A DNA stretch of 64,000 nt from Mesotaenium endlicherianum (GCA_009602735.1 WELA01003517.1:242900-306899), one strand, 5' to 3'; counted from the first letter of the stretch, positions 1 to 41,022 are shown. Notes: generated by a model from the letters alone, not told the origin. Program-made: numbers and translations.

Positions 1-129
1 CATCCCCCCTTTCACCCCCCACCCCCACACCTCCCTCGTTCAAAGGCCTGCTGCACCTGCCTCAAATGTCGCCAGTCGCCAGCAGCAGAGGCAGAAGCAC
101 AGGCGGGAGCATAGGCAGGACACACATAC

Positions 130-3100: not shown

Positions 3101-3989
3101 GACGCGAGCATGAGTGCAGATCCAGTCCCTCTGTTGTTACATAGGTTCACTCAACACGACAGGTGGTGATAGTGCACTAGTGTGTTGGAGAAGTCCTTGT
3201 CAAGAACATGCCATTGAGTACGAGTACGACTCAAGGACATGATTTGCGGGGGCACTAAAATGAGCAACTGACAGGCACTTCATCCAGCTGCATTACTTTT
3301 GAAGGTCCGCAAAGCGACGCCAAACCGGGCGCCAGAATGGGTGCAGGCTACTAGCAAGCAGAGAACCTGAGTGAGGAGAGGAGTGGTGTTGAGCGACGTG
3401 AAAAACGAGAGAATGACAATGAGGACACCAGTCTTTGTGTGCACCGCCAACACCACCACTCAACCGCGTGCAACGGATGCATGCATGCCCAGGTGCATGC
3501 CCTAGCAGACCTCATGGGATTTGCTGCTGGCAGCAGAGAGAGCTCTACGCACGCTGATGCTGCACAACCCCAGCAGCAGGAGCTGCTCCTACCACCTGCT
3601 GATACAGGGCACACAGCACACATCCACCTACTCCACGCTTCCCGTACCCTCCTGGCAGAGAACAAGGCTTGAGGCACACACGCTCACACACACGCACACA
3701 CACATGCTACATGGAAGAAATGCGCCCGTTCATGCATGCAAATGGCACCGCCTCAGCGCACACCAGGCTGCAGCTACGAAAGACAGCAGGCAGGTATCAG
3801 AAGAACAAGGAGGAGGAAGAATAGGAGGAGGAGGCAGAGGAGGAGCCCACCGGCTTTGATGGTCTCCTCAATGAGGCTGGTGACGCGAGTCTCCAGCTCC
3901 CCGCGCTCCTTGGCGCCCGCCATCAGCAGCATGATGTCCAGTGCCAGCACCCTCTTGCTCTGCACGCACACCCCACACGCGCGCACGCA

Positions 3990-4042
<53 letters not shown>

Positions 4043-7000: not shown

Positions 7001-7599
7001 GCCACTTCAAAAACTAATTTGCTTCCTGAAGAGAAGGGTACCTCAGAAGCGGGCTTCTCACTTCCTGCCATACTAGAAACTTCTTGGTCCTCAAGGTAGG
7101 ATCGAACTGCATCTCGGGCTCTCTCAATTGTGACTCCTGTTTTCAAGAACCCAACACTGTCACGTTCCTCGGCAATCAAGCCTAAGAGTAACTGCTCAGT
7201 TCCAACCTCGCCTCTCCCCATAGCCTTCGCCTCCCTTTGCGCAAGCATAACTGACTTCACGGCCCTCTCAGTAAATATCTCAAATACCGCGGTGACAACT
7301 CCTCTGCTAGCAGGCTGCGCATGCCTTGATTCTAAGCAACGGAACGCTGCCTTACAGAAGGCCTCGTCTGCAGACAAATCTTTGTTGCGTAAGATTGCAG
7401 GCATCTTTTTAAGACCACTGTGGGATGCATCCAACTGAATCTCACGGCAACGCAAATTCCGTTTCACAGATGCTGAAACATCTACAGGAGTCACGGCCTT
7501 CCTCTGGCCTGAATGCCATGAAGACCGCCGAACGGTTTGTCCGGCAGGATAAGCATACGATGCAAAAGTAGGAATTGCTATTGACGCTACTGCCTCCAT
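130..7599 (-). CDS. clpD: Plastid Hsp100 chaperone ClpD/ERD1-like, 5' part (8 exons: 7599-6896, 6030-5876, 4834-4602, 3959-3851, 3021-2891, 2382-2281, 1336-1049, 302-130); gene continues past the left edge
   Basis: All introns are GT-AG and the exons join in frame. Transit-peptide-like N-terminus, Clp-N repeats ([27 protein letters not shown]), [23 protein letters not shown], Walker A GEPGVGKT, Walker [35 protein letters not shown]. The ClpD-type segments [21 protein letters not shown] and DYWSEIR favour ClpD over ClpC. Exon 8 is the least certain. Confidence 0.9.
1687..1740. repeat. (GCAG/GCAT)n intronic microsatellite
   Basis: gcatgcaggcaggcaggcatgcagg... run seen directly. Confidence 0.85.
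3961..4055. repeat. (AC)n followed by (GC)n, alternating purine-pyrimidine tract
   Basis: acacac... then gcgcgc..., abutting the clpD exon 4 acceptor. Confidence 0.9.
5700..5812. repeat. Degenerate hexamer repeat (CCTGCA/TCTGCA)n
   Basis: Seen directly in clpD intron 2. Confidence 0.85.
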
Positions 7600-11245: not shown

Positions 11246-12867
11246 ATCCCTCCAACCTAACTCGTTGTCGCCTCGACAACATTAAACTGAAGAAATCTTT
11301 GGTCAGGGAACTGAACCTGACCAGCCTCCCCCACTGACTGCCTCTTCAGCCTGTGAAATGAATCGACTTACCAAATAGGCGATTAACAATTGATGCCCAC
11401 ATAGACAGGCATACTGTGTAACTTAACAATTTTACAGTTAAAGTAAGAGGAGCCAGTGATGGGCAGACTGATTTGGCACCCACCAGTGCTCTTCCTCTTG
11501 TCCTGTGTGGATGGCAAATAAAGGAAAAGAAGAGGCTTCCAGAAGGATGCAAGTTGCTGAATGCAATGGAGTTTGTCAAAAGCTGGAACCAAAAAAAAGA
11601 CAAAATGTTATATCTTCTGCTAAGAGAGGTACCTCCTCAACCTGAAGAAGTGGTGGAGAAAAAGGTAAGCCCTAAAGAAGAAGTATGCCTTACCCAGAAT
11701 CGAGGACTTGCTTCATACCCTGTCTGGTACTCAGGTGTTCAGTAAGATAGATATCAAAAGTGGTTATCATCAAATCAGAATTGCTGAGGGGGATGAACAC
11801 AAGACTGCCTTCCGCACACGTTATGGACACTATGAGTTCAACGTGATGCCATTTGGACTGACTAATGCTCCTGCCACCTTCATGGGTGCTATGAATGACA
11901 TTTTCAGACCTTATTTGGATAAGTTGGTGCAAGTTTTCCTTGATGATATTGTAATTTTCTCTAAAGATGAAGCTCAGCACACTGAACACTTAGAGACAGT
12001 CCTGGACACTCTGAGAAAAAATCACTTACATGCTAAAATGAGCAAGTGTGATTTCTTTCAAGAAAGTATTGAATTCATAGGCCACGTTGTCAGTAACGAA
12101 GGCATCAGTGTGGACCCTAAGAAAGTCCAGACCATAAGGGACTGGTGTAATGAATCAGTATACTGGTCGATATAATATTCATTTAAATAATATAGTTAAA
12201 TAAGTTCAGCCTGCTGAACTCTAGTTAATAATCAGTCTGCTGGACTTTATACTTAATATCTCTTTAATGACTTGGCCGCAAGTAGCAGGCTGAGGCCACC
12301 TTAAGTCAACTTGCTGACACGTTCTTTGACAGCCAGCTGACTTCCGTACTCGGTAGCAGCGAACTGCCTCAATATGCATCTAAGTGTGGTATGCTAGATG
12401 AATGGCCACATGACATCCCTATGATGGATGGCGATTCGGGATGATGGGAGATGGCGGTGGATTTGGTTAACCGAGGTCCTACCAACGTGGTTAACTCCCG
12501 GGTAGGCGGTGCCATCGCACTGACCGTTGAACAGTAAACTCATTCCATGTACATACGCTAGACATTGCTCTCGAGTTCGACATTCGGAAACAAGGCCAAC
12601 TCTCTTGTATAGCTTACTGAGAGAGATCTGAATCCAAGGCGAGAAGCCATTGATACGCACTGTCTTCTAACCTTGCTTATCTATAAGTTTACTGATTTGC
12701 ATTATTGATGCTAGTTTACTCTCATTTGACTGACGAGTAATATTCACTGCTAGTGCGTTGTCCTTTTGCCGTTAAACGGTTAACGGAAAGTACCATAAAG
12801 ATTACTCGCTGATATAAAGATCTTTATTAATTGTTAATCGCCTATTTGGTAAGTCGATTCATTTCAG

Positions 12868-12879
12868 TGGTATCGGAGC
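12868..12879 (+). promoter_or_regulatory. Primer binding site, tRNA-iMet type (TGGTATCGGAGC)
   Basis: 1 nt after the LTR end, one mismatch to canonical TGGTATCAGAGC. Also at 27792 and 41106. Confidence 0.85.
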
Positions 12880-12900
12880 AGTTATCACAGTCTTCTTTGT

Positions 12901-14379
12901 ATGGTAAGGACAAGGTCTCAAACTAGCAACTCCCGAGACATGGAGAACCAGGATAACGAGAATGTCCAAAACCAGGCGGAAAGCCATGTAGCGGGAAACC
13001 GTACCTATTCGGAAGCAGTAGCGGATACTGCAGCTAGGGAGGCTGCAGATGAGGCAGCTGCTATTGCCTCAGTCGCAGCTCAGCAAGCTGAGGAGGAGAT
13101 AGCCAGACTAGAAGCTGAACAAGTAGCAAAGGCCGCTGAAGATATACAAAGGAGGGAAGGACAGCCAGCTGACGAGCGCACTGTTGAAGAACTTATGGCA
13201 TCAAGGGCCAATGTTCTGAACCCACCTCCTGCCGTACAACTCAATGTACCCCTAGGTCAAATACGTGACCGGCTGAATGCGGCAGGAATTGCTGCTGCAG
13301 GAGCAAGAGGGATTGTTGAGGACACTACTCAGCGAGTAGATGCCAATGCTGCTGCTGCATTTGCTAATCTACCACCCCAAAATGTAGACTTGGGAGCATT
13401 GTTCGTTCAGATGCAGTCGCAAATGGCGACCATGTATCAGTCCCAGCAGGAGGACAAAAGAATCATAATGTCCCTACTCCGGGACAGAGACCAACTGGGG
13501 TCTCACACCACTAGTGGTGGTGGCCGAGGGCCTAGTAAGCCCAAGCCGAAACCTCCCCAGGACTATGATCCTGAGGGAAACAGAAAATATTACCTGATCA
13601 AGTTTCTCGCGGATGTTGAGCAGTGGCTGGAGAACTACCCAGAACTGCAAGATTACGAGAAGGTCAGGCACACCGGTGCGCTACTGAAAGGCAGTGCCGC
13701 AGACTGGTGGCTTTACTGGAAGGAAGAGCGTAAGGCTCGGCAACTCGGTGACCCTACGTGGGTAGAGTTTGTCGAGAAGTTGCATGAGAAGTTTGATGTC
13801 ATCAACCAGCAGGAGAAAGCTATCTATGCGATGATCTCCCTGACACTGAAGCAGACCACTTCAGTTGCTGAGTTTGCTCAAAAGTTCCAAGAGAACATGA
13901 TGAAGCAGCCTGATTTGCCAGAACGGTATAGGATAGCATACTTCAGGTATGGCTTGAAATCCGAGGTCTCTGGTCATTTTGCTGAGAAAAAGTATGAGAA
14001 ACTGGCTGACTTGATCCAGGATGCTGACGCCTGGGATCAGCAGCAGTTCAATCACAAGCGCCAGAGTAACGCTTTGGTGTCTAAGATTGTCAAAAAGCCC
14101 CACGGTTCCTACAATGCAGTTGAAGGAGACCAGGCTGAGGATAATCAGGGTGATGAATATGAGTATGAGTACAATGCTATTCAGTCTAGAGGTAGAGGTG
14201 GTCCCTCTCGAGGTGGCTATGGAAGGGGTGGTGGTAGGACTAAGCCGAGACCAGCCTCAGCAAAATCTACTTGCTACCATTGTCAGCAGAAAGGCCACTA
14301 CAGAGAACAGTGTCCGGTCAAGCACCTGCCTAAGGTCGAGAGAAAAGACCAGCCTTTAAAAGACAGCAACAGTCAGTAA
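12901..14379 (+). CDS. gag: Gag, 492 aa, intact
   Basis: MVRTRSQ start, retrotransposon capsid-like region (AADWW...[13 protein letters not shown]), RG-rich stretch and CCHC knuckle [14 protein letters not shown]. Confidence 0.92.
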
Positions 14380-17300
14380 TCCAGTCTACTGACTGTGAGG
14401 ATGCTAGAGATAGTGAGTCGTCACTAGCTGCCCTCGTAGCAGGTATTATGGGTCCTGCTGAACTGGATTCACTATGCATGCCTGACAACCAGATAAAGGA
14501 GACCATCAGCAATATAGACGTCCAGAGAGTGCACACTCTGGATGCTCTTGTTCCACCTGATGTCCAACATTTCTTTGCTACGTCAGGAGAACAATGCGAA
14601 AGTCAGGAAAAGACAGTCCCCCCTATCCTACTGCATTGCATGATTGCAGGTAGGAAGGTGAGGGCATTTGTTGACGGAGGGGCGTCACATACTTTTATCC
14701 ACAAGGACTTAGTTAAGCGGCTAAGGCTGCCTACTGTCACCCAAGGGAATAGAAAAATATTCCTTGGAGATGCCTCAAGTATCCCGGGAGGAGTTATAAC
14801 CAAGCCTATTGAGGTCCAGTTAGGTTCTGGCATTGCAGTTCTAACTGAAACGCTTACATTTGAGGTACTCAACACTGGCTTTTATGATCTCGTGCTAGGC
14901 AGGTCCTGGCTTAATAGACATCAAGCTGAAGTGTGTTGGAGCAGAGGTACAGTTAAAGTGAGAGGAGCCAGTGATGGGCAGACTGACTTGGCACCCACCA
15001 GTGCTCTTCCTCTTGTCCTGTGTGGATGGCAAATGAAGGAAAAGAAGAGGCTTCCAGAAGGATGCAAGTTGCTGAATGCAATGGAGTTCGTCAAAAGCTG
15101 GAACCAGAAGGAAGACAGAATGTTCTGTCTGCTGCTAAGAGAGGTACCTCCTCAACCTGAAGAAGTGGTTGAGAAAAAGGTACACCCTCCGGAACACCCT
15201 ACTGCTGCAAACATTGTTGCTCAGTACACGGATGTGTTTAATATGCCTCCAGGACTACCCCCTAAGCGGGAAGTAGATCATAGGATTGATTTATTACCTG
15301 GTAGCCAGCCACCCTGGCAACGCACGTATGGCTTGTCTTATTTGGAGAGTGAGGAGTTGAAAACACAGATTGCAGAGCTGGAGGAAAATGGTTACATTTC
15401 TCCCAGTAAATCACCGTACGGCGCACCTATCCTATTTGTTAAGAAAAAGGATGGCAGTATGCGGATGTGTGTGGATTACAGAGCCCTGAACAGAATTACA
15501 GTAAAGAACAAGTATGCTTTACCCAGAATCGAGGACTTGCTTGATACCCTGTCTGGCGCTAAGGTGTTCAGTAAGATAGATCTCAAGAGTGGTTATCATC
15601 AAATCAGAATTGCTGAGGGGGATGAACACAAGACTGCTTTCCGCACACGTTATGGACACTATGAGTTCAACGTGATGCCATTTGGACTGACTAATGCTCC
15701 TGCTACCTTTATGGGTGCTATGAATGACATTTTCAGACCTTATTTGGATAAGTTTGTGCAAGTTTTCCTGGATGATATTTTAATTTTCTCTAAAGATGAA
15801 GCTCAGCACACTGAACACTTAAAGAAAGTGCTGGACACTCTGCGGAAAAATCACTTGTATGCTAAAATGAGCAAGTGTGATTTCTTTAAGGAAAGTATTG
15901 AATTCTTAGGCCACGTTGTCAGTAAAGAGGGCATCAGTGTGGATCCTAAGAAAGTCCAGACCATAAGGGACTGGCCAGTACCACAGTCTGTCTCTGAAGT
16001 TAGATCCTTCCTCGGGTTGGCTAACTACTATAGGAGATTTATTGAGAATTATTCCACAAAGGCCAGTAAACTGACTGACCTTACTAAGAAAGACATCGGG
16101 TATGTGTGGGGGGAAGAGCAGCAGGCTGCCTTCCAGACCCTTAAAGATGCCCTTTGTTCTGCCCCAGTGCTAGCCGTGTATGACCCCAGCAAACCGGTGC
16201 AGGTGGTTACTGATGCCTCTGATTTTGCCATGGGTGCTATTTTGTTGCAGCCTGCTGACAAAACCACAAAGGATGGTAAGGTACGGCAGGAGTGGCATCC
16301 TGTGTTGTATGAGTCTATGAAATTTAATCCAGCGGAGATTAATTACTCAGTGCATGATAAAGAGCTGCTAGCTATCATTCATGTACTCAAACAGTGGAGA
16401 GCATACTTACATGGTAAAGCTTTTAAGGTGATTACAGATCATCTAGCTCTGACCCACTTTCAGAAGAAGTCCAAGCTGTCGAGGAGGGAGAACCGCTGGA
16501 GCCAGATGCTGGAGCAGTTCCAAGTCCAGATCGACTACAAACCAGGGAAGTTGAATCCTGCTGATGCACTCTCTAGAAGACCTGACTTGCAAGAAAGGAA
16601 CTTTAGTCAGCATGCTGTAGATAAAGTCCTGTGTGCACTCACTTCACTAAAGGTGAAAAAGTCCTTCCTTGAACAACTTAGGAAAGCCTACCTTTCTGAC
16701 CCAACATTTGAGCCCAGCCCCACTACTGGTATGTGTCGTGCTACCGCACTCGGGTATAAGCTCAAGGGAGGGGTCTGGGTGACTGAAACCACTTCAGGCA
16801 GGCTGAAGCTGGTCATTCCTAATAATTTGGAAATAAGGTCTCTCTTACTGAGTCAAGCTCATGACAGTCTCCTGGGTGGACATTTGGGGCAGGCCAAAAC
16901 TGTTGGCAAACTGGCAAAACATTATCATTGGGAGGGGTTACCCCGGGAGGTCTTGAAATATGTCAAGTCCTGTGACCAGTGTCAGAGAAATAAGTCTCGG
17001 CACACACCACCCGGAGGTCTCTTGCAACCGCTGCCCATCCCAGCTGGACGCTGGGAAACTATATCCATGGACTGGGTGGTCTCACTACCAAGAACTGCCA
17101 ACGGGCATGATTCAATACTGGTAGTCGTGGATAAACTGACAAAAATGGTCATTTTTATCCCCACAACTGTCAAAGTGACTGCACTCGAAACAGCGAGACA
17201 GTTTTACAACCATGTAGTATGCCAACATGGGCTCCCTTCTAATATCATCTCAGACAGAGACTCAAAATTCACCTCTAAGTTCTGGAGAGCTTTAATGGGG

Positions 17301-18164
17301 TTAATGGGAGTCAAACAGCTGCTCAGCACAGCAAACCACCCTCAGACTGATGGGCAGACTGAAAGAACTAACCGAGTTCTGCAGGAGGTGCTGAGAGCAT
17401 ATATTAACCAAAAACAAGATAATTGGGATGACCTGTTGCCTCAAATTCAGTTTGCGGTCAACAGTGCGGTGCACGCGTCAACGGGCAAGACTCCTTTTGA
17501 ACTCAGCCTGGGTAGAGTCCCTAAGTCTCCTCTAGATGTGCTAGGGGAATCTTTAACTCACCCTGAAGGGATTGACAACCCGGTCTCCCTCCAGTTAACT
17601 CAGGAGTTTGCTGACACCCTGTCAGAAGTCCAACAAAACCTGCACAAAGCCCAAGAAAACCAACAAAAATACGCTAATCAACACCGTCGGGAGCTGACAT
17701 TTTCTAAGGGCGATTTAGTCAAACTGCATTCTCAGCACCTGTACCTCCCTGGTGTGGTCAAGAAAAAGCTTGGCCCTGTCTGGGTCGGTCCATATTCGGT
17801 GGTCCGTCGTGTCGGTCAGAATGCTTACAAACTGAACATGTCAGCTGACTACAAGGGTCACCCGGTCTTTAATGTCTCCTTCCTGGAACCATACATCAAA
17901 GGTGATACACTGTTCACAGGTCGGTTACCTGTCCAACCGGGACCGGTCCCCGCTGTCCGGGACGGCGATCCTGAGGAATATGAGGTCGATGAGATTTTAG
18001 ACGCTCGCTCGGTCCGTCGATCGTCTAAATATGTCATGAAGTACCTCATCCGATGGAAGGGTTACGATGCCTCTGGGGACACTTGGGAATTTAAAGATCA
18101 GCTGACCAATGCCAAAGGGGCGTTGAAACGGTTCCACCTTCGGGCGGCTGGGGCACCTCCCTAA
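14355..18164 (+). CDS. pol: Pol (PR-RT-RNaseH-INT-chromodomain), intact, in -1 frame relative to gag
   Basis: [36 protein letters not shown]; RNase H VTDASD; INT H-H-C-C (HDSLLGGH...CDQC), core [18 protein letters not shown] motif; chromodomain YEVDEILD...YLIRWKGY...DTWE retaining the aromatic-cage residues (group I type). Confidence 0.95.
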
Positions 18165-18488
18165 CAGTCATTTCAGTTGACACGGGAAGGTGACAGGAGG
18201 TCCTGTCTCCATATAAGTTGGAGGGGGATGTGACAGTTAGTGACAGTTGTGACAGGCAGCCCACCTTTAAAATTAAGTTGGAGGGAGTGGTATTCTCTGA
18301 TCACCATATTACACACTCAACCTGCGCTCACACTCACTTGCTCTCTAACTCAATTTTCCCTTATATTCACTCACACCAGGTATTCCACACTAGGAACTCT
18401 CCCGATCGCGTTCCTCTTCATCAAGGGCACTCAGTAGCGGCAAAATATCATGACTTCACTAACTGCATTGTGTTTATGATTGAGCAGG

Positions 18489-20155
18489 ATGACTCAAAAG
18501 TCGGAACTCAAGAGGAAGAGAAGGGCGGAAGAGGCACATGCAGAATACTTGCAATTCCGTGGAGACATCGAATCATCTTCCATCTCCGCTCGGGAATCAC
18601 AACGACTCCAACAACAGCGGGAGGCACAGAAGAAGAAGGAGGAGGAGGAACAGGCCAGACTGAGGCAGGAAGAAATGGACAGAAAAGCTGCAGAGGAGGC
18701 CAAGAAAGCAGAGGAGGAGAGGCAAGCTGAGGAGAAGCGGAAGCAGCAGGCTGAAGAAGAAGAACAGAGGAGAATCAGCAGCTACCGCTACACGGTGCTG
18801 GGCAAGGGCTTTGATCTACTGGAGGAGGCCTTCAAGTATGCCCAGAGAAGTCGCAGTGAGTCGCAGAAGGAAATCCTCCAGAAGGAAGGGGAGACATCCG
18901 AAAACTTTGACAAGTATATAGAGGTCGGCACAGGGCTCCTCCTCTACCACGATTACGCCAGGATGGTAGGATATACCATCGGAGAGGCCAAGGCAATGGC
19001 CCAGGTGAACGAAGCAGGAGCTGTCTCGATTCCTGGTATCTGGGGGGCAGATAGGGTCATCAGGATGATCCCCATGGACGCGGACAGCTTCAAGGACTCA
19101 ACACCCCACAACAGGTTCAAGGCCATGTACAATGAGGTGGAGAGGAGGAGCTGGGAATTCTTGGCCAGAGAAACCAGTCAGCTGGACTTTGCAGGGCACT
19201 GGTACCCTTGTACTCTCAAAAAGACAGACGCTGCCTTCTTCCAAAAGCCCACTGATTGGCGGTGGATGACCATCAACATGAGGGACCAGCAGAATGACAG
19301 GGCGACGGATGAGGATTTCCTGACAGACCTAAAGGGGAACATAGTATTGCCCCCTCACATTGCGGCTTGGGACCCAAGATTGGATGGAGTCAGAGACTGC
19401 ATGAGCCAAGAGATGCAGGGGGACAGAAGCAGGGCCCGAGAGTCATTCTCCAAAGGGAAGCACGCTTATGCCAAATGGGCAAGTAAGCAGGGGGAAAAGG
19501 ACCTCTATGCGGTCCGGACTCAGCAGCCCCCACCAGCACCCAAAAGGGGAAGGTCAGTAGGATATTCTTTTTCTCGGGAAGAGCTGGAGCAGCGGACAGA
19601 GGAGACCCCAGAAGTCTCAGAGGAACTCGGGGACAACGAGGAGGCGGAGTCGGAGGAAGACGAGGAGGAAGGCGAGGAGGAGGACACTAGCCCCGCCGTG
19701 ATCCTGACACCTGCCTCATCCCCTGTAAGGGAGAAGCGGGGTGGGCCCCGCCGCAACCCGCTCAAGAGGAGGATATCACTTGGCTGGGGACTGCCAGAGG
19801 ACAGAGCCCATCTCCAGGCAAGGAGACCCAGTCGGACAGGGCAGAGAGGAGGGCTGCTCGGGAAATAGCCAGAGGCCTGCCAGCATCTCCCTCGCAGAGA
19901 GGGCATGTACCCTTGGCTCATGTCATGCAACATCCTTCTGGGATGCCGGTATACGTACCTGTCAGTTTGAGGGCTGCCCAGGAGAAGGCTGCCTCCCTTC
20001 AGTTTCAGACTGTGCAGGAGGAAACAGCCCAGTTACTACGTTCTCCGCCGGGTCCTTACACGGAACCCCCTTCTCTGACAGGCTTCAAAAGACCCCAAGA
20101 CAGGAGGAGGTCTGGCTCCCCTGAGCATAGGGCCTCAGGGATATCTCCCTCCTAA
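18489..20155 (+). CDS. ORF3 type I, accessory protein of unknown function (~555 aa consensus; 1-nt frameshift near 19737 in this copy)
   Basis: ATG at 18489. Homologous frames in copies C (34669-36330) and D, and a diverged paralog at 24307. Copy C reads through the region where B is shifted. Confidence 0.85.
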
Positions 20156-20204
20156 GGGCAGCAGGCTGGGGATAAGAGGGACAGCACGCTGTTACTAGTG
20201 ATAG

Positions 20205-20240
20205 TGTTGTCGAGGCGACAACATGATAAGTTGGAGGGAT
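20205..20240 (+). promoter_or_regulatory. Terminal hairpin (TGTTGTCG-AGG-CGACAACA) plus polypurine tract (AAGTTGGAGGGAT)
   Basis: Directly precedes the 3' LTR TG. Related modules sit before the LTRs at 11245, 36450 and 48627. Confidence 0.85.
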
Positions 20241-23200
20241 TGTAATGAATCAGTATATTGGTCGATATGATATTCATTTAAATAATATAGTTATATAAGT
20301 TCAGCCTGCTGGACTCTAGTTAATAATCAGTCTGCTGGACTTTATACTTAATATCAATTTAATGACTTGGCCGCAAGTAGCAGGCTGAGGCCACCTTAAG
20401 TCAGCTTGCTGACACATTCTTTGACAGCCAGCTGACTTCCGTACTCGGTAGCAGCGAACTGCCTCAATATGCATCTAAGTGTGGTATGCTAGATGAATGG
20501 CCACATGACATCCCTATGATGGATGGCTATTCGGGATGATGGGAGATGGCAGTGGATTTGGTTAACTGAGGTCCTACCAACGTGGTTAACTCCCGGGTAG
20601 GCGGTGCCATCGCACTGACCGTTGAACAGTAAACTCATTCCATGTACATACGCTAGGCATTGCTCTCGAGTTCGGCATTCGGAAACGAGGCCAACTCTCT
20701 TGTACAGCTTACTGAGAGAGATCTGAATCCAAGGCGAGAAGCCATTGATACGCACTGTCTTCTAACCTTGCTTATGTATGAGTTTACTGATTTGCATTAT
20801 TGATGCTAGTTTACTCTCATTTGACTGACGAGTATTATTCACTGCTGGTGCGTTGTCCTTTTGCCGTTAAACAGTTAACAGAAAGTACCATAAAGATTAC
20901 TCGCTGATATAAAGATCTTTATTAATTGTTAATCGCCTATTTGGTAAGTCGATTCATTTTANNNNNNTAACTGGCCAGTACCACAGTCTGTCTCTGAAGT
21001 TAGATCCTTCCTCGGGTTGGCTAACTACTATGGGAGATTTATTGAGAACTATTCTACAAAGGCCAGTAAAGTGATTGACCTTACTAAGAAAGACATAGGG
21101 TATGTGTGGGGGGAAGAGCAGCAGGCTGCCTTCCAGACCCTTAAAGATGCTCTTTGTTCTGCCCCAGTGCTAGCCGTGTATGACCCCAGCAAACCGGTGC
21201 AGGTGGTTACTGATGCCTCTGACTTTGCCATGGGTGCTATTTTGTTGCAGCCTGCTGACAAAACCACAAAGGATGGTAAGGTACGGCAGGAGTGGCATCC
21301 TGTGTTGTACGAGTCTATGAAATTTAATCCAGCGGAGATTAATTACTCAGTGCATGATAAAGAGCTGCTAGCTATCATTCATGTGCTCAAACAGCGAAGA
21401 GCATACTTACATGGTAAGGCCTTTAAGGTGATTACAGATCATCTAGCTCTGACTCACTTTCAAAAGAAGTCCAAGCTATCGAGGAGGGAGAATCGCTGGA
21501 GCCAGATGCTGGAGCAGTTCCAAGTCCAAATCGACTACAAACCAGGGAAGTTGAATCCTGCTGATGCACTCTCTAGAAGACCTGACTTGCAAGAAAGGAA
21601 CTTTAGTCAGCATGCTGTATATAAAGTCTTGTGGGCACTCTCTTCACTAAAGGTGAAAAAGTCCTTCCTTGAACAACTTAGGAAAGCCTACCTTTCTGAC
21701 CCAACATTTGAGCCCAGCCCCACTACTGGTGTGTGTCGTGCTACTACACTCCGGTATAAACTTAAGGGAGGGGTCTGGGTGACTGAAACCACTTCAGGCA
21801 GGCTGAAGCTGGTCATTCCTAATAACGTGGTAATAAGGTCCCTTTTATTGAGTCAAGCACATGACAATCTACTGGGTGGGCTTTTGAGGCAGGCCAAAAC
21901 TGTTGGCAAACTGGTAAAACATTATCATTGGGAGGGATTACCTCGGGAGGTCTTGAAATACGTTAAGTCTCGTGACCAATGTCAAAAGAATAAGTCTAGC
22001 CACACATCACCCGGGGGCCACTTACAATCGCTGCCCATCCCAGCTGGCCGCTGGGAAACAATATCAATGGACTGGGTGGTCACACTGCCACGAACTGCCA
22101 ATGGGCATGATTCGATTCTTGTAGTCGTGGATAAACCGACAAAAATGGTCATTTTTATCCCCACAACTGTCAAAGTAACTGCACTCGAAACAGCGAGACA
22201 GTTCTACAAGCATGTAGTATGCCACCATGGGCTACCCTCTATTATAATCTCAGACAGAGACTCAAAATTTACCTCTAAGTTCTGGAGGGCTTAATGGGGT
22301 TAATGGGAGTCAAACAGCTGCTCAGCATAGCAAACCATCCTCAGATTGATGGGCAGACTGAAAGAACTAATTGAGTTCTTCAAGAGGTACTGAGAGCCTA
22401 TATTAACCAAAAACAAGATAATTGGGATGACCTGTTACCCCAAATCCAATTTGCGGTCGACATGTGCAGTGCACGCGTCAACGGGCAAGACTCCTTTTGA
22501 ACTAAGCCTGGGTAGAGTCCCTAAGTCTCCTTTAGATATCCTAGGGGAGTCTTTAACTCACCCTGAAGGGATTGACAATCCGGTCTCCCTCCAGTTAACT
22601 CAGGAGTTTGCTGACACCCTGTCAGAATTCCAGCAGAACTTGCACAAAGCCCAAGAAAACCAATAAAAGTACGCTAATCAGCACCGTCGAGAACTGACCT
22701 TTTCTAAGGGCAATTTGGTCAAACTGCATTCTCAGCACCTGTACCTCCCTGGTGTGTTCAAGAAAAAGCTTGGTCCTGTCTGGGTCGGTTCATATTCAGT
22801 GATGGGCCGTGTCGGTCAGAACGCTTACGAACTAAACATGTCAGCAGAATACAAGGGTCACCCGGTCTTTAATGTTTCCTTCCTTGAACCCTACATCAAA
22901 GGGGACACAGTGTTCACAGGTCGGTTACCTGTCCAACCGAGACCGGTCCCCGCTGTCCGGGATGGTGACCCTGAGGAATATGAGGTTGAGGAGATTTTAG
23001 ACGCGCGCTCGGGCCGTCGACCGTCTAAATATGTCATGAAGTACCTCATTCGATGGAAGGGTTACGATGCCTCTGGGGACACTTGGGAATTTAAGGACCA
23101 TTTGACCAATGCCAAAGGGGCGTTGAAACGGTTCCACCTTCGGGCGGCTGGAGCCCCTCCATAACTGTCATTTCAGTTGACACGGGAAGGTGACAGGCGG

Positions 23201-23559
23201 TCCTGTCTCCATTTAAGTTGGAGGGGAAAATATATGACAGTTAGTGTGCGAGAGCGAGAAAGGGACAGTCATGTGAACCCTAAGTGTCAGCATAGTGACA
23301 GATGGGACAGCCTGGCCCACATAAAGCACCTTGGGCAGAAGGAAAAAGGGCCTCGCACAGCAATACATCACTTAGCGCACCTTAAAATACATTCATACGT
23401 TTATGTCTACGGACCGCAACTACGTCAACTCTTAGCAATCACCCGGTAAGGTAAACAGAGGCGAATCCACCATACTAATACGAACATACTTCGTGCCTGC
23501 AATTCCTATGACAAAGGTCGATATCCTACTAACTTGTACCCTGGTTACATGTGCAGGAT

Positions 23560-24303
23560 TGAAAGGGGCAGAGTGCCCTAGTGGAAGCGTAGTGACTCGC
23601 GAGGAAAGAAACTAGTTGCAATCATACTAAAGAGTGCAGCGGCATATTGCTAAGAAAGCTTAGGAAAATTACTTGACATTTTGAGTGGCAAGAAACTGCT
23701 CACAAATGGTTTGGTATGAAAGGCCTTGTCATTACAAACCCGTAGAAATTTACAGAAGTGAAAACTGATCAGAATTGAAGAAGTTATGCCTATTTATAAT
23801 TTTCTGCCTAAGTGCTCCTCTCTAGGAGGAAGCTACGGATTTTCCCAAGTGTTCGTCAAATCGTCCCTTCCAGAATATTCGTGAGTAAGCCAGATCAGTC
23901 TAATCTGACATGTCGAGCCGAATTGACGTCCACATACATGCATCGACATTACTAGAATATTCTATCTTAGACGCGCTAGGCTAAACCGAAACTTCTAGGT
24001 AAATCGACCTAATCGGCACTCCGCGTCAGCCGAACTTACGTGAAGGTTCGAGTTCATTCTAACGGGCCAGATCGCTCGACGCTGTCGGGCAATCCGACGG
24101 TCGCGCTCACCGCAAATTAAAAACAGTCGTTAACCGACCTCATAACTAACTAAACTTCAAAAATCCATAACTCTCTCAATACTTGACCAAATTCGATGAA
24201 TTTTATATCAAAATGACCACAAAAATGCACTCTACACGACTATACAATCAAAACATACTTTCATGAAACTCAAAAGTGCACTTTATAAACCTATGACCTT
24301 ACG
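23560..24303 (-). mobile_element. fam2 solo LTR (reverse)
   Basis: Reverse complement matches the LTRs of element E (TGTAAGGTCATAGG...CCCCTTTCA). TSD AGGAT at 23555-23559 and 24304-24308. Confidence 0.92.
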
Positions 24304-24306
24304 AGG

Positions 24307-25819
24307 ATGGCTCCCACCACACAAAAGGAGGACAGAAAGCGCAAGGCAGAAGAAGCCAGGAGGACAATGGAGCAATACCAGAAGGAGTTGGCGGCGACGT
24401 CCCTCACCAGGAGAGAACAAGAAAGGGTCCGCAGACAACAAGAGGCGGCAAAAGAAGCACAGAGGAAGAAGGATCAGGAAGCGAAAAACCTCAGGAAAGC
24501 TGAGGAGGAGAGACAGAAGAAACAACAAGAAGAAGCGGCAGCGGCAGAGGAGGAGAGAAGGAAAAAGGCTGAAGCGGACAGGCAGAAGAGCTTGGCCACT
24601 TACAGGTACACTGTGGTGGGTGGCCAAAACTTTGATAACCTGAAGGAAGCATTGCTGGCAGCCCAGGAGATCAACAAGCTGGAACAGACAACACTGCTAC
24701 AGAGGGAAGGAGCTGCAGCACTGGATAGGTACATCGAGACACACACGGGTGTGGTCCTCTACGAAGATTATGCCAAGATGGTGGGCTACACAGCAAAGCA
24801 GGCCCGGTACTTTGCCGATGATTTAGAGGAAGAGCCAGTCCCAATACCGGGAATAGTGGGAGATCAAAGACTCATCAGGATGGTGAGCATGCAGCCCGAT
24901 AGCTTTAAGGATACGATATTCTACCTCACACTACTGCCAGCTTACAATGAAGTTGAGAGAAGGAGCTGGGAGTACTTGGCCAGGGAAGCAGGACAGCAGA
25001 TGTTCTCTCCCCACTGGTTCCCATGTAAACTGAGGAAGGCTGAGCATGGACCCCGGTACTACCAGCAGCCAACAGACTGGAGGTGGATGACCGTCACAAA
25101 CAAAAAGCAGGAGTGTGACCGAGCCCAACCGGATGACTTCCACAATGGCCTAGACGGCTACCTCACCCTACCACCTCACATTGCCCCTTGGGACCCAAGG
25201 CTGAATGGCCGCCTAAGCGATATGAATGCAGAGACCAAAGAGCACAGGAGGAGGGGGAGAGACTACTTCTCTAAGGGAAAGCATGCTTTTGTCAAAAAGG
25301 CGAAGAATGCAGGCCGGATAGATATCAGCAGGCTGAAGGCCAAGCAACCTCCGGCGCGCCCTAAGAAAGGGAGGTCAGTAGACTACTCCATGTCCACCAG
25401 AGAGCAGGACGACTTAGTGGACGAGACTCCTACCCTCTCAGAGGAGGAAGATGAGGAGGATGAGGGAGAAGAACAAGGCAGAGGAGAAACATCAGAACCT
25501 GGTTCTCAGGACACCCAGGGGCAGGCGAGAGCAGGGCTTCCTCAGGAGCCAAGATCAGGAATATGGCATCTGACCCCGATCGTGGAGGTAACCGAACCGC
25601 GCACTCGCTCCCCCAGCCCACCTGCCCAAGCAGGGGAAGAAGCTGATCTGACTGTACTTGGCAGCATACAAAGGCAAAAATCCCCAGAGGATAGGAGAGC
25701 CAGAAGAGGAACACGCGGGGTGGCCAGAGGTATGCCGACCTCTCCCTTCGCTCAGGGGCATGTACCTCTTGCCAATGTATTTCAGCACCCTACTGGAATG
25801 CCTGTCTATGTGGGGATCA
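24307..25819 (+). CDS. ORF3 type II (diverged paralog), truncated at the inversion breakpoint
   Basis: About 500 open codons. Shares YRYTV, LY.DYA.MVGYT, DSFKD, YNEVERRSWE.LARE, PTDWRWMT, LPPHIA.WDPRL.G, FSKGKHA and GHVPLA.V.QHP.GMPVYV with type I. Confidence 0.85.
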
Positions 25820-25844
25820 AGTATGCTTGTAACTGTTCAATTGT

Positions 25845-27124
25845 TAGTCCTGGAGGCATATTAAATACATCCGTGTACTGAGCAACGATTTTTGCAGCAG
25901 TAGGGTGCTCCGGAGGACTTACCTTTTTCTCAACCACTTCTTCAAGTTGAGGAGGTACGTCTCTTAGCAGCAGACAGAACATTCTGTCTTCCTTCTGGTT
26001 CCAGCTTTTGAAGAACTCCATTGCATTCAGCAACTTGCATCCTTCTGGAAACCTCTTCTTTTCTTTCATTTGCCATCCACACAGGACAAGAGGAATAGCA
26101 CTGGTGGGTGCCAAGTCAGTCTGCCCATCACTGGCTCCTCTTACTTTAACTGTACCTCTGCTCTAACACACTTCAGCTTGATGTCTATTAAGCCAGGACC
26201 TGCCAGCACGAGATCATAAAAGCCAGTGTTGAGTACCTCAAATGTAAGCGTTTCAGTTGGAATTGCAATGCCAGAACCTAATTGGACCTCAATAAGCTTG
26301 GTTATAACTCCTCCCGGGATACTTGAGGCATCTCCAAGGAATATTTTTCTATTCCCTTGGGTGACAGTAGGCAGCCTTAGCCGCTTCACTAAGTCCTTGT
26401 GGATCAAAGTATGTGACGCCCCTCCGTCAACAAATGCCCTCACCTTCCTACCTGCAATCATGCAATGCAGTAGGATAAGGGGGACTGTCTTTTCCTGACT
26501 TTCGCATTATTCTCCTGACTTAGCAAAGAAATGTTGGACATCAGGTGGAACAAGAGCATCCAGAGTGTGCACTCTCTGGACGTCTATATTGCTGATGGTC
26601 TCCTTTATCTGGTTGTCAGGCATGCATAGTGAATCCAGTTCAGCAGGACCCATAATACCTGCTACGAGGGCAGCTAGTGACGACTCATTATCTGTAGCAT
26701 CCTCACAGTCAGTAGACTGGATTACTGACTGTTGCTGTCTTTTAAAGGCTGGTCTTTTCTCTCGACCTTTGGGAGGTGCTTGGCTGGACACTGCTCTTTG
26801 AAGTGACCCGTCTGCTGGCAATAGAAGCAAATCGATTTTGCTGAGGCTGGTCTCGGCTTAGTCCTACCACCACCGCTTCCAAAGCTGCCTCGAGAGAAAC
26901 CACCTCTACCTCTAGACTGTATAGCATTATACTCATACCCATATTCATCACCCTGATCATCCTCAGCCTGGTCTCCTTCAATTGCATTGTAGGAATTGTG
27001 GGGCTTTTTGACAACCTTCGACACCAAAGCATTACTCTGGCGCTTGTGATGAACTGCTGCTCATCCCAGGCATTAGCATCCTGGATCAAGTCAGCCAGTT
27101 TCTCATACTTCTTCTCAGCAAAAT
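25845..27124 (-). pseudogene. Element A gag 3' end plus protease region (reverse, decayed)
   Basis: Minus-strand ORFs match B gag end (CFYCQQTGHFKEQC) and PR (VDGGAS). Confidence 0.9.
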
Positions 27125-30100
27125 AAGTTCAGCCTGCTGAACTCTAGTTAACAATCAGTCTGCTGGACTTTATATTTAATATCTGTTTAATGACTCAGGC
27201 CGGAAGTAGCAGGCTGATGTCAGCTTAAGTCAGCTTGCTGACACATTCTTTGACAGCCAGCTGACTTCCGTACTCGGTAGCAGCGAATTGCCTCGATATG
27301 CATCTAAGTGTGGTATACTAGATGAATGGCCAGATGACATCCCTATGATGGATGGCGATTCGGGATGATGGAAGATGGCGGTGGATTTGGTTAACCGAGG
27401 TCCTACCAACAAGGTTAACTCCCGGGTAGGCGGTGCCATCGCACTGACCGTTGAACAGTAAACTCATTCCATGTACATATGCTAGGCATTGCTCTCGAGT
27501 TCGGCATTTGGAAACGAGGCCAACTCTCTTGTACAGCTTACTAAGAGGGATCAGAATCCAAGGCGAGAAGCCATTGATACGCACTGTCTTCTAACCTTGC
27601 TTATGTATGAGTATACTGATTTGGATTATTGATGCTAGTTTACTCGCATTTGACTTACGAGTATTATTCCCTGCTAGTGTGTTGTCCTTTGCCGTTTAAC
27701 CAGTTAACGGAAAATATCATAAAGATTACTTGCTGGTATAAAGATCTTTATTAATTGTTAATCTCCTATTTGGTAAGTTGATTCATTTCAGTGGTATCGG
27801 AGCAGTTATTACAGTCTTCTTTGTATGGTAAGGACAAGGTCTCAAACTAGCAACTCCCAAGACATGGAGAACCAAGATAACGAAAATGTCGAAAACCAGG
27901 CGGAAAGCCACGTAGCGGGAACCCGTACCTATTCTGAAGCAGTGGCAGATACTGCAGCTAGAGAGGCTGCAGATGAGGCAGCTGCTATTGCCGCAGTCAC
28001 AGCACAGCAAGCTGAGGAGGAGAGAGCCAGATTAGAAGCTAGATTAGATTAGCAAAGGCCGCTGAAGATACAGAAAGAAGGGAAGGACAGCCAGCTGACG
28101 AGCGCACTGTTGAAGAACTTATGGCATCAAGGGCCAATGTTTTGAACCCACCTCCTGCTGTACAACTCAATGTACCCCTATGTCAAATACGTGACCGACT
28201 GAATGCGGCAGGACTTGCTGCTGCAGGAGCGAGAGGGACTGTTGAGGACACTACTTAGCGAGTAGATGCCAATGCTGCTGCTGCATTTGCTTGACAACCA
28301 CCCCAGAGTGTAGACTTGGGAGCATTGTTCGTTCAAATGCAGTCGCAAATGGCGACCATGTATCAGTCCCAACAGGAGGACAAAAGAATCATAATGTCTC
28401 TACTGCGGGACAGAGACCAACTGGGGTCTCAAACCACTAGTGGTGGTGGCCGAGGGCCTACTAAGCCCAAGCCGAAACCTCCCCAAGAATATGATCCTGA
28501 GGGAAATAGAAAATACTACTTGATCAAGTTTCTCGCTAATGTTGAGCAGGGGCTGGAGAACTATCCGAAACTGCAAGATTACGAGAAGGTCAGGCACACC
28601 GGTGCGCTACTGAAAGGCGGTGCCGCAGACTGGTGGCTTTCCTGGAAAGGAGAGCGTAAGGCTCGGCAACTCGGTGACCCTACGTGGGTAGAGTTTGTTG
28701 AGAAGTTGCATGAGAAGTTTGATGTCATCAACCAGCAGGAGAAAGCTATCTATGCGATGATCTTCCTGACAGTGCAGCAGACCGCTTCAGTTGCTGAGTT
28801 TGCTCAAAAGTTCCAGGAGAACATGATGAAGCAGCCAGACTTGCCAGAACGGTATAGGATAGCATACTTCAGGTATGGCTTGAAATCCGAAGTCTCTGGT
28901 CATTTCGTTGAGAAGAAGTATGAGAAACTGGCTGACTTGATCCAGGATGCTGACGCCTAGGATCAGCAGCAGTTCAATCACAAGCGCCAGAGTAATGCTT
29001 TCGTGTCTAAGATTGTCAAAAAGCCCCACGATTCCTACAATGCAATTGAAAGAGAACAGACTGAGGATGATCAGGGTGATGGCTATGAGTATGAGTATAA
29101 TGCCATACAGTCTAGAGGTAGAGGTGGCTTCCCTCGAGGCGGCTATGGAAGAGGTGGTGGTAGGACTAAGCCGAGACCAGCCTCAGCAAAATCCACTTGC
29201 TTCCATTGCCAGCAGCCAAGTCACTTCAGAGAACAGTGTCCAGTCAAGCACCTCCCAAAAGTCGAGAGAAAAGACCAGCCTTTAAAAGACAGCAACAATC
29301 AGTAATCCAGTCTACTGACTGTGAGGATGCTAGAGATAGTGAGTCGTCACTAGCTGCCCCCGTAGCAGGTATTATGGGTCCTGCTGATCTGGATTCACTA
29401 TGCATGCCTAACAACCAGATAAAGGAGACCATCAGCAATATAGACATCCAGAGAGTGCAAACTCTGGATGCTCTTGTTCCACCTGATGTCCAACATTTCT
29501 TTGCTAAGTCAAGAGAACAATGCGAAAGTCAGGAAAAGACAGTCCCCCCTATCCTACTGCATTGCATGATTGCAGGTAGGAAGGTGAGGGCATTTGTTGA
29601 CGGAGGGGCGTCACATACTTTTATCCACAAGGACTTAGTTAAGCGGCTAAGGCTGCCTACTGTCACCCAAGGGAATAGAAAAATATTCCTTGGAGATGCC
29701 TCAAGTATCCCGGGAGGAGTTATAACCAAGCCTATTGAGGTCCAGTTAGGTTATGGCATTGCAATTCTAACTGAAACGCTTACATTTGAGGTACTCAACA
29801 CTGGCTTTTATGATCTCGTGCTGGGCAGGTCCTGGCTTAATAGACATCAAGCTGAAGTGTGTTGGAGCAGAGGTACAGTTAAAGTAAGAGGAGCCAGTGA
29901 TGGGCAGACTGACTTGGCACCCACCAGTGCTCTTCCTCTTGTCCTGTGTGGATGGCAAATGAAGGAAAAGAAGAGGCTTCCAGAAGGATGCAAGTTGCTG
30001 AATGCAATGGAGTTCGTCAAAAGCTGGAACCAGAAGGAAGACAGAATGTTCTGTCTGCTGCTAAGAGAGGTACCTCCTCAACCTGAAGAAGTGGTTGAGA

Positions 30101-33100
30101 AATAGGTAAGCCCACCGGAGCACCCTACTGCTGCAAAAATTGTTGCTCAGTACACTGATGTATTTAATATGCCTCCAGGACTACCTCCTAAGAGGGAAGT
30201 AGATCATTGGATTGATTAATTACCTGGTAGTCAGCCACCTTGGCAACGCACTTATGGCTTGTCTTATGTGGAGAGCGAGGAGTTGAAAACACAGATTGCA
30301 GAGCTTGAGGAAAATGGTCATATTTCCCCCAGTAAGTCACCTTACGGCGCACCCATTTTATTTGTTTAGAAAAAGGATGGCAGTATGCGGATGTGTGTGG
30401 ACTACAGAGTCCTGAACAGAATTACGGTAAAGAACAAGTATTTTTTACCCAGAATCGAGGACTTGCTTGATACCCTGTCTGGTGCTAAGGTGTTCAGTAA
30501 GATAGATCTCAAGAGTGGTTATCATCAAATCAGAATTGCTGAAGGGGATGAACACAAGACTGCCTTCCGCACACGTTACGGACATTATGAGTTCAACGTG
30601 ATGCCATTCGGACTGACTAATGCTCCCGCAACATTTATGGGTGCTATGAATGACATTTTCAGGCCTTATTTGGATAAATTTGTGCAGGTTTTCCTGGATG
30701 ATATTTTAATTTTCTCTAAAGATGAGACTCAGCACGCTAAACACTTAAAGACAGTTATATGCTAAAATGAGGAAGTGTGATTTCTTTAAGGAAAGTATTG
30801 AATTTTTAGGCCACGTTGTCAGTAAAGAGGGCATCAGTGTGGACCCTAAGAAAGTCCAGACCATAAAGGACTGGCCAGTACCACAGAGTGTCTCTGAAGT
30901 TAGATCCTTCCTCGGGTTGGCTAACTACTATAGGAGATTTATTGAGAATTATTCCACAAAGGCCAGTAAACTGACTGACCTTACTAAGAAAGACATAGGG
31001 TATGTGTGGGGGGAAGAGCAACAGGCTGCCTTCCAGACCCTTAAAGATGCCCTTTGTTCTGCCCCAGTGCTAGCCGTGTATGACCCCAGCAAACCGGTGC
31101 AGGTGGTCACTGATGCCTCTGACTTTGCCATGGGTGCTATTTTGTTGCAGCCTGCTGACAAAACCACAAAGGATGGTAAGGTACGGCAGGAGTGGCATCC
31201 TGTGTTTTACGAATCTATGAAATTTAATCCAGCGGAGATTAATTACTCAGTGCATGATAAAGAGCTGCTAGCTATCATTCATGTGCTCAAACAGCGGAGA
31301 GCATACTTACATGGTAAGGCCTTTAAGGTGATTACAGATCATCTAGCTCTGACTCACTTTCAGAAGAAGTCCAAGCTGTCGAGGAGGGAGAACCGCTGGA
31401 GCCAGATGCTGGAGCAATTCCAAGTCCAAATTGACTACAAACCAGGGAAGTTGAATCCTGCTGATGCACTCTCTAGAAGACTTGACTTGCAAGAAAGGAA
31501 CTTTAGTCAGCATGGTGTAGATAAAGTCCTGTGTGCACTCACTTTACTAAAGGTGAAAAAGTCCTTCCTTGAACAACTTAGGAAAGCCTACCTTTCGGAC
31601 CCAACATTTGAGCCCAGCCCCACTACTGGTGTGTGTCGTGCTACTACACTCAGGTATAAACTTAAGGGAGGGGTCTGGGTGACTGAAACCACTTCAGGCA
31701 GGCTGAAGCTGGTCATTCCTAATAACTTGGAAATAAATTTTCTTTTATTGAGTCAAGCACATGACAGTGTACTGGGTGGGCATTTGGGGCAGGCCAAAAC
31801 TGTTGGCAAACTGGCAAAACATTATCATTGGGAAGGGTTGCCCCAGGAGGTCTTGAAATATGTGCAGTCCTGTGATCAGTGTCAAAGAAATAAGTCTAGT
31901 CACACACCACCGGGAGGTCTCTTGCAATCGCTGCCCATCCCAGCGGGACGCTGGGAAACTATATGCATGGACTGGGTGGTCACACTGCCACGAACGGCTA
32001 ATGGGCATGATTCGATACTAGTAGTCGTGGATAAACTAACGAAAATGGTCATTTTCATCCCCACAACTGTCAAAGTAACTGCACTCGAAACAGCGAGACA
32101 GTTCTACAACCATGTAGTATGCCAACATGGGCTACCCTCTAATATCATCCAAGACCGAGACTCAAAATTTACCTCTAAGTTCAAGAGAGCTTTAATGGGA
32201 TTAATGGGAGTCAAACAGCTGCTCAGCACAGCAAACCACCCTCAAACTGATGGGCAGACTGAAAGAACTAACCGATATCTGCAGGAGGTCCTGAGAGCAT
32301 ATATTAACCAAAAACAAGATAATTGGGATGACCTGTTGCCTCAAATTCAGTTTGCAGTCAACAATGCGGTGCACGCGTCAACGGGCAAGACTCCTTTTGA
32401 ACTCAGCCTCGGTAGAGCCCCTAAGTCTCCTTTAGATGTACTGGGGGAGTCTTTAACTGACCCAGAAGGGATTGACAACCCGGTCTCCCTCCAGTTAACT
32501 CAGGAGTTTGCTGACACCCTGTCAGAAGTCCAACAAAACGTGCACAAAGCCCAAGAAAACCAACAAAAATACGCTAATCAACACCGTCGGTGTAATGTAT
32601 CAGTTCATTATTTATTTAATAAATTGCATATATAAATATAACACTAAATAAGTATTATGTCTATATACTCACATGTGCGAGTTCATCTAAATGAATGTAT
32701 GTCGATGTAATGCGAGTTTACTTACTTTGTCAAAAAGGTCAGCAGAATGACTTTTGTACCATAGTGTGGTTTGCTGACATTGTTGAAAAGGTCAGCAGGA
32801 TGACTTTTTTATCATAGTATAGTTTGCTGAGATTTATATATCAGTTATATACAGGATATAATATCAGTAGGTTGACATATAGTAAGCTCGCTTGATATTA
32901 GTCAACATACTTAGCTTCAGTACGCTGAGGATACACATATTCATTTAGATTGTTATTTGTAGATTGGCACATGTGACCGTAGTATACTGAAAGTCGGGAG
33001 GTCGACTGAGATTTGGTAAACCAATGTCCTACCAGTGTGATTAACTCCTGGGTAGGCGGAGCCGTCGTCAGTCAACTGAACAGTTAGGACTTCAGTCAAC

Positions 33101-40470: not shown

Positions 40471-41022
40471 TGAAAGGGGCAGAGTACCCTAGTGGAAGCG
40501 TAGTAACTCACGAGGAAAGGAACTAGTTGCAATCATACTAAAGAGTGCAGCGGCATATCACTAGGAAAGCCTATGAAAATTACTCAACATTTTGAGTAGC
40601 AAGAAATTGCTCACAAATGATGTAGGATGAAAGGCCTTGTCATTACAAACTCGTAGAAATTTACAGAAGTAAAAAGTCCCAAGAAATGAAGTAGTTATGT
40701 CTATTTATAGTTTTCTACGACGGCCGCTCGCCCCTAGGCGAGAGGGCCGCTTAGCAACGGATTTTCCTAAGTGTTCGTCAAATCGTCCCTTCCAAAATAT
40801 TTGTGAGTAAGCCAGATCAGTCTCATCTGACGTGTTGGACCAAATTGACGTCCACATACATGCATCGACATTACTAGAATGTTCTATCTTAGACACGTGA
40901 GGCTAAACCGAAACTTCTTGGTAAATCGACCTAGTCGGCACTCCGCGTCAGCCGAACTTACGTGAAGGTTCGAGTTCACTCTAAAGGGCCAGATCGCTCG
41001 ACGCTGTCGGTCAATTCGACGC
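40471..41022 (-). mobile_element. fam2 LTR fragment (reverse, truncated)
   Basis: Collinear with the left ~540 bp of the 23560-24303 solo LTR. Confidence 0.88.

Follow-up and report, generated by a model that had tools for sequence, protein, structure and literature searches.

The AG dinucleotide immediately upstream of the third open reading frame (ORF3) of a Ty3/gypsy retrotransposon in the alga Mesotaenium endlicherianum is probably a true 3' splice site, judging by the sequence signals that surround it. We tentatively propose that it is the acceptor of a short intron (107–111 nt) within the ORF3 5' leader, for which the predicted donor is a local GT (at 18380 in type I of the gene and 23446 in type II). 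A transcript starting downstream of pol, or indeed any transcript reaching the region, would lose this leader intron. Splicing would thereby take out two out-of-frame upstream ATGs (18450 and 18476), and the type I leader would then contain no ATG ahead of the ORF3 start codon, which would lie one base past the junction. The local donor is favored because its position is conserved and because the ATG pattern of type I fits a leader exon followed by an intron. All positions are counted from the first letter of the window, i.e., the whole stretch of 64,000 nt that was analyzed, and features are on the plus strand unless stated otherwise.

An algal chromovirus with a third gene

The first 7.4 kb of the window contain a G+C-rich host gene for a ClpD-type chaperone (126–7404, minus strand), the first exon of which shows 99% identity to a protein labelled jgi/Mesen1. 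From approximately 10.5 kb onward, the window is filled by nested copies of a single LTR retrotransposon. Copy B (12146–20959) is the best preserved; copies C (27121–37167) and D (41024–49345) are 86–94% identical to it, with D the most diverged. The pol gene of copy A is 93% identical to that of copy B up to position 23226, and the sequence beyond is completely different. The 3' LTR of copy B is followed immediately by a gap of six N (20962–20967), behind which copy A begins, so that A and B are only provisionally adjacent. DNA contigs of sequencing run X1 on both sides of the N run continue into primer-binding-site and pol sequence.

Copy B is bounded by LTRs of approximately 720 bp (5' LTR, 12146–12866; 3' LTR, 20241–20959), which are 97% identical by self-BLAST (12146–12864 vs. 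20241–20959). The primer-binding site, TGGTATCGGAGC, lies directly after the LTR end, ...TTTCA. The gag gene (12901–14379) matches the Pfam families Ty3_capsid (4.5e-10) and Retrotrans_gag (2.6e-08); its zf-CCHC match is weak (E 8.7e-04, 19.7 bits) and falls below the Pfam cut-off of 20.8. The pol gene (14334–18164, with its TAA stop at 18162–18164) encodes protease, reverse transcriptase, RNase H, integrase, and a chromodomain, with matches to RVT_1 (2.6e-41), RT_RNaseH (2e-33), Integrase_H2C2 (1.9e-18), and Chromo (8.3e-09). The closest pol proteins in a large database are 43–56% identical and come from Haematococcus, Closterium, and land plants. A terminal polypurine tract (PPT; 20227–20238) precedes the 3' LTR. 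With its LTRs, primer-binding site, order of gag and pol, chromodomain, and PPT, the element belongs to the Ty3/gypsy chromoviruses, its host being a streptophyte alga; the assignment to the chromoviruses follows from pol carrying the protease, reverse transcriptase, RNase H, and integrase domains together with a chromodomain. Zygnematophyte algae are the sister group of land plants. In a search of the titles and abstracts of literature on Mesotaenium retrotransposons, none was found that describes this element.

ORF3 is present in all four element copies of the window that retain the region between pol and the 3' LTR. It spans 18489–19868 in copy B (type I, 459 codons) and 24307–25881 in type II (524 codons), where an inverted fragment of the element, from 25845 onward, truncates its 3' end. 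Lengths of 459–524 codons, together with location and recurrence, place it among the sense extra ORFs (aORF-3S / eORF-3'F), which have at least 250 codons, lie between pol and the 3' LTR, and occur in most copies. Protein identity between type I and type II is 43% across 392 residues (E 2e-96). Over 249–401 codons, dN/dS was 0.20 for B–C, 0.19 for B–D, 0.22 for C–D, and 0.18 for type I against type II; by the identical method, pol gave 0.15, 0.23, and 0.12. ORF3, which the initial annotation had taken for a real gene, is indeed a real gene of the element, under purifying selection that equals in strength the selection on pol. All four copies in the window are incomplete or damaged: the frame of copy B changes near codon 416 relative to copy C and type II, copy C has an in-frame stop (35554–35556), copy D is without both the ATG and the AG, and copy A is interrupted and cut. 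This state, and the lack of an ORF3 homologue in the databases searched, would favor the view that ORF3 is non-functional and that its open frame and motifs are chance features of decayed copies. The range of dN/dS (0.18–0.22, vs. 0.12–0.23 for pol) and the similarity of the two types make that view extremely improbable.

The ORF3 product is a soluble protein, with a long helix at its N terminus, and not an envelope protein. Structure prediction from five sequences gave a helix at residues 2–98 as the only confident part of a model with a mean pLDDT of 49 overall. Besides this highly charged helix, the protein contains a conserved core and a stretch of acidic residues; a C-terminal motif common to copy C and type II has been lost from copy B via its frame change. 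The env-like character suggested for ORF3 by the initial annotation was not borne out, because the proteins contain no hydrophobic segment (maximum Kyte-Doolittle 19-residue mean 0.88–0.97) and match no Pfam family. Comparison of residues 95–360 with 785 candidate proteins of near length gave none with E ≤ 0.001, the ESM Atlas gave no usable match, and the best match among PDB sequences had an E of 0.57. Pattern searches for ORF3-related loci gave 212 matches in metagenome contigs and 92 in viral contigs, none of which was confirmed. ORF3 was also considered as a second gag and rejected, because its similarity to gag is confined to the charged helix (E 0.56).

Candidate intron signals before ORF3

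A branch-point word and an acceptor precede the start codon of ORF3 in copies B and C and in type II, and all of the motifs that had been quoted for these three sites are present. In copy B, the branch A of the word CACTAAC (18457–18463) is at 18462, at a distance of 25 nt from the final base of the intron; the acceptor CAG (18485–18487) is followed by G 18488 and by the ORF3 ATG at 18489. Copy C has CACTGAC (34637–34643), then GAGCAG/G with the AG at 34666–34667 (slashes mark predicted junctions), and the ATG at 34669. In type II (copy A), TACTAAC (23527–23533) is followed by CAG (23554–23556) and then G-A-T, with the branch A 24 nt upstream. The equivalent in copy D (46738–46772) reads CATTGAC ... 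GAGCAC/G-ATA; CAC replaces CAG and ATA replaces ATG, such that both the AG and the ATG are lost, and the copy looks decayed.

Pairing these acceptors with local donors gives candidate introns of 108 nt in copy B (18380–18487; CAG/GTATTC ... CACTAAC ... CAG), 107 nt in copy C (34561–34667; with CACTGAC), and 111 nt in type II (23446–23556; CCG/GTAAGG ... TACTAAC ... CAG/G), in agreement with the length of about 110 nt given by the initial annotation for the donors at 18380 and 23446. An ORF3 transcript would have 18286–18379 as its candidate non-coding first exon, which ends in CAG/ and the 5' start of which is placed provisionally. Each candidate has the sequence features of a U2-type GT-AG intron, namely a GT donor, a branch-point word 18–40 nt before a YAG, and an AG acceptor. 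The acceptor forms resemble those in the host ClpD-type gene model (GAGCAG/T and GGTGCAG/G, where donors are weak, e.g., CAG/GTACCG) and that of an antisense pol intron described below (TGTGCAG/G), all in the same genome. Copy B contains no ATG in 18229–18449, and both of its out-of-frame upstream ATGs lie inside the candidate intron.

Several features count against the local intron. The type I donor, GTATTC, is without a G at +5, and a length of 107–111 nt is unlike that of the six introns mapped in the ClpD-type gene by mapping its protein back (508–1041 nt, G+C-rich, with a weak donor consensus). The would-be first exon of type II holds ATGs at 23271, 23302, and 23403, and a type II variant contig is without 153 nt of this region (23262–23414).

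In copy A, the start-codon context of type II is interrupted by a 744-nt insertion of another repeat family (23560–24303, with a 5-bp duplication, AGGAT), and the ATG is restored past it at 24307. In a DNA contig from run X1, 23554 is followed directly by 24304 (749 skipped; five letters fit both sides). This contig has the empty site, and the pre-insertion CAG/G-ATG that the initial annotation had reconstructed therefore occurs in real copies. Further copies of the approximately 744-nt repeat family lie at 40471–41021 and, on the minus strand, at 51529–50799 and 55026–54286.

The main argument that these signals are functional is that they stand at matching positions in leaders that otherwise align poorly. 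Alignment of the type I and type II leaders gave 54% identity, with a score attained by 15 of 500 shuffles. Despite this divergence, the GT, ACTAAC, and GCAG/G coincide in position, with introns of 108 vs. 111 nt and branch A distances of 25 vs. 24 nt; the similar spacing within unrelated-looking flanks, remarked on from the outset, thus stands. By chance, the module YACTRAC-15..30-CAGGAT would be found 0.09 times per 64-kb strand, and 18 of 200 simulated strands contained it at least once; it was observed three times in the window, every time at an ORF3 start, for motifs that were chosen post hoc after sequence inspection and in a comparison of two lineages. Only two lineages are independent, because copies B and C share the module by descent. 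Divergence is also slower in the leader than at synonymous sites within ORF3: copies B and C differ at 7/153 and 9/107 leader sites against a pS of 0.15, and copies B and D at 24/152 and 14/108 sites against a pS of 0.25.

Part of this evidence would also fit an AG that is not a splice site at all, with ORF3 either rarely expressed or produced without splicing, from an internal or a read-through transcript. The words would then serve antisense transcription, reverse-transcription signals near internal PPTs, or start-codon context, or would be leftovers of descent. A looser module (YACTRAC, 15–30 nt, YAG/G) is not rare, with approximately two expected per strand by chance and four observed on each, and the weak overall homology of the leaders indicated by the shuffles means that some shared words are to be expected. 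Yet three separate signals (GT, branch point, and CAG/G) are equally spaced in both lineages, and an unspliced leader would keep two out-of-frame ATGs less than 40 nt from the ORF3 start. Moreover, a third ORF on a full-length retroelement RNA has no known translation route save splicing or a promoter of its own. We therefore regard an absence of splicing as doubtful, and the RNA observed over the site, described below, bears on it further.

A second alternative keeps the acceptor and replaces the donor. The word TTG/GTAAGT (12846–12854, exon end 12848), 18 nt before the end of the 5' LTR, is a candidate far donor; its use would remove gag-pol and yield a retrovirus-style subgenomic mRNA. This route is not mutually exclusive with the local intron, and both donors may be used; taken by itself, we consider it unlikely. 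Over seven bases, this far donor agrees perfectly with the plant-type consensus. The G/GTAAGT that the initial annotation had singled out at 12849 recurs in all six plus-strand LTR ends of the window, but LTR ends are conserved anyway, for integration. There is no ATG in 12709–12866, so the ORF3 ATG would be the first in a far-donor mRNA, and such splicing is described as the route for gypsy env and Bagy2 (PMC7264820). Against this, far-donor splicing leaves both the positional conservation of the local GT and the ATG-free stretch upstream of it unexplained, its junction would place a T at −3 of the ORF3 ATG, and, depending on where in the LTR transcription starts, the candidate donor may lie outside the transcript. 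A further strong donor-like word, ATG/GTAAGG, covers the likely gag start codon (12901–12909), 55 nt past the one in the LTR; joined to 18488, this donor would be predicted to put ORF3 in a different frame from the gag ATG.

RNA across the candidate acceptor

We mapped RNA to two stretches, 12146–20240 and 18227–26000, using raw runs X11, X14, and X17 of a relative (organism B) and a putative RNA assembly (X4), with junctions listed from a threshold of three reads. The DNA runs of organism B contain 0.46–0.49 of the words of the element, and this organism is not surely the strain of the window. A search of sequencing runs did not find the element in those recorded as RNA. The initial annotation had inferred that ORF3 is expressed from mRNA spliced at its start codon. 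Of this proposal, the conserved sequence signals stand, and neither of the two junctions that it named was recovered: no joint with at least three reads was found for 18379>18488 or its type II equivalent in X4, X11, X14, and X17, at a sense depth of only approximately 1x in the stranded runs, such that this absence carries little weight. Likewise, no 12848>18488 joint was listed in X11, X14, and X17, for which both sites lie on one mapped stretch and sense depth is very low; this counts only slightly against the far donor at the LTR. Rare reads spliced from donors outside the mapped stretches could escape this analysis, as loose ends are known only among those listed. The predicted leader intron gives exact junctions, which are checkable by RT-PCR.

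RNA across the candidate acceptor is unspliced, probably antisense, and at least partly derived from a rearranged copy. Depth over 18227–18486 was 9.4 + 14.5 in X14 and 7.9 on the plus and 1.25 on the minus strand in X17, and in X11 it was below 2 (18356–18625). In X14, depth fell from approximately 24 before the AG to approximately 9 at 18487–18746 and to 0–3 farther into ORF3; in X17 it was below 2 inside ORF3. Unspliced reads and one X4 contig (18233–18551) span the candidate acceptor. Reads of the stranded runs over the site are mostly first-mate-on-plus, which by the usual convention corresponds to RNA of the opposite strand. A copy rearranged at 18551 is the source of the X4 contig and of some reads over the acceptor. 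Reads or contigs in X4, X14, and X17 join 18551 to an inverted 16924, indicating a rearranged, transcribed copy in the genome of the relative.

In X14, eight reads with six different starts skip 289 nt (17640–17928) in the integrase part of pol. The skipped segment reads ACAG/GTAACC...TGTGCAG/G, with GT..AG on the minus strand only, and this agrees with the antisense reading of the RNA. These observations lend some weight to the doubtful alternative without splicing, given that the only RNA observed over the site is unspliced and that antisense spliced RNA and PPT copies in the region point to other constraints on its sequence. Many RNA reads of organism B stop at the borders of the 744-nt repeat, including 193 reads at 23560 in X14.

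Polypurine-tract copies and comparison with known elements

The word TAAGTTGGAGGG occurs just downstream of pol, at 18214–18225 and 18274–18285 in type I, around GTGACAG repeats, and as one copy at 23214–23225 in type II. There are 11 matches in the window, against 0.43 expected, and copies C and D have equivalents of the internal words. We identify this word as the polypurine tract because it abuts every 3' LTR. Homology between type I and type II stops exactly at the end of TAAGTTGGAGGG (18226/23226). Given this break at one PPT word, and the other PPT word at the 3' LTR, ORF3 and its leader form a cassette between PPT copies. This arrangement suggests exchange between elements by template switching in reverse transcription, and thus how extra genes pass between elements.

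The sequences CATATAAG and TTTAAAATTAAG after pol were considered as TATA boxes and rejected, as both are parts of PPT copies; the argument for an internal promoter was therefore dropped. No promoter for an internal ORF3 transcript, which the local-intron reading requires, was identified in the sequence after pol. A scan for bacterial promoters and terminators found nothing, with a model that is not applicable to the present organism.

In a fuller version of the preferred local-intron reading, ORF3 would be a self-contained accessory cassette with its own transcription start, a conserved leader intron, PPT borders enabling swaps between type I and type II, and a soluble coiled-coil product. 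The leader intron would end one base before the ATG, and the swaps would take place between element lineages during reverse transcription. We hold this combination of features to be quite unlikely as a whole. If true, it would represent a foamy-virus-like gene layout in the plant lineage, with a coiled-coil protein without known relatives. In foamy viruses, an internal promoter drives the accessory genes; an internal ORF3 transcript would be similar in that a 3' accessory gene has its own promoter, whereas neither a promoter nor a start site was found for ORF3.

If the LTR donor were used, the closest parallel would be the env mRNAs of Drosophila gypsy and retroviruses, in which a donor in the leader is joined to an acceptor before the third ORF. 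ORF3 differs from these in that it encodes no envelope protein and in the extra local donor, conserved 107–111 nt upstream of its start. Retroviral env mRNAs need no second, local donor.

The candidate intron lies in a non-coding leader and serves a separate ORF. In contrast, the Ogre elements of pea and Medicago contain a short spliceosomal intron that is removed from part of the RNAs (PMC6317226), is located between gag-protease and reverse transcriptase, and brings the polyprotein back into frame. Thousands of plant elements are reported to carry a sense extra ORF between pol and the 3' LTR, and such ORFs are widespread in plant Ty3/gypsy elements (PMC6317226). The expression and function of extra ORFs in plant LTR retrotransposons are described as mostly unknown, and splicing as the usual expression route for extra ORFs of retroelements, with Bagy2 on record as a plant LTR retrotransposon that expresses a sense extra ORF in this way (PMC7264820). 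The algal element is like the Bagy2-type elements (aORF-3S / eORF-3'F) in having a sense ORF between pol and the 3' LTR that is kept across the copies of a family. The term env-like is applied to Bagy2-type ORFs, in which membrane segments are frequent, whereas the ORF3 of the algal chromovirus is without any and its splicing is only predicted.

Spliced expression of extra LTR-retrotransposon ORFs is hence an already known mechanism, and its predicted use here would be no surprise. The present case lies in an algal chromovirus, with a non-envelope ORF3 protein and a cassette bounded by PPTs. If the site is used, the element would provide a clear zygnematophyte case in which a non-envelope accessory gene under selection has an intron of its own.

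The GTGACAG repeats around the first internal PPT copy number four within 18186–18256, and copy D has extra units. At the end of pol, one of the GTGACAG units forms part of a hairpin with a perfect 6-bp stem, GACAGG-AGGT-CCTGTC.
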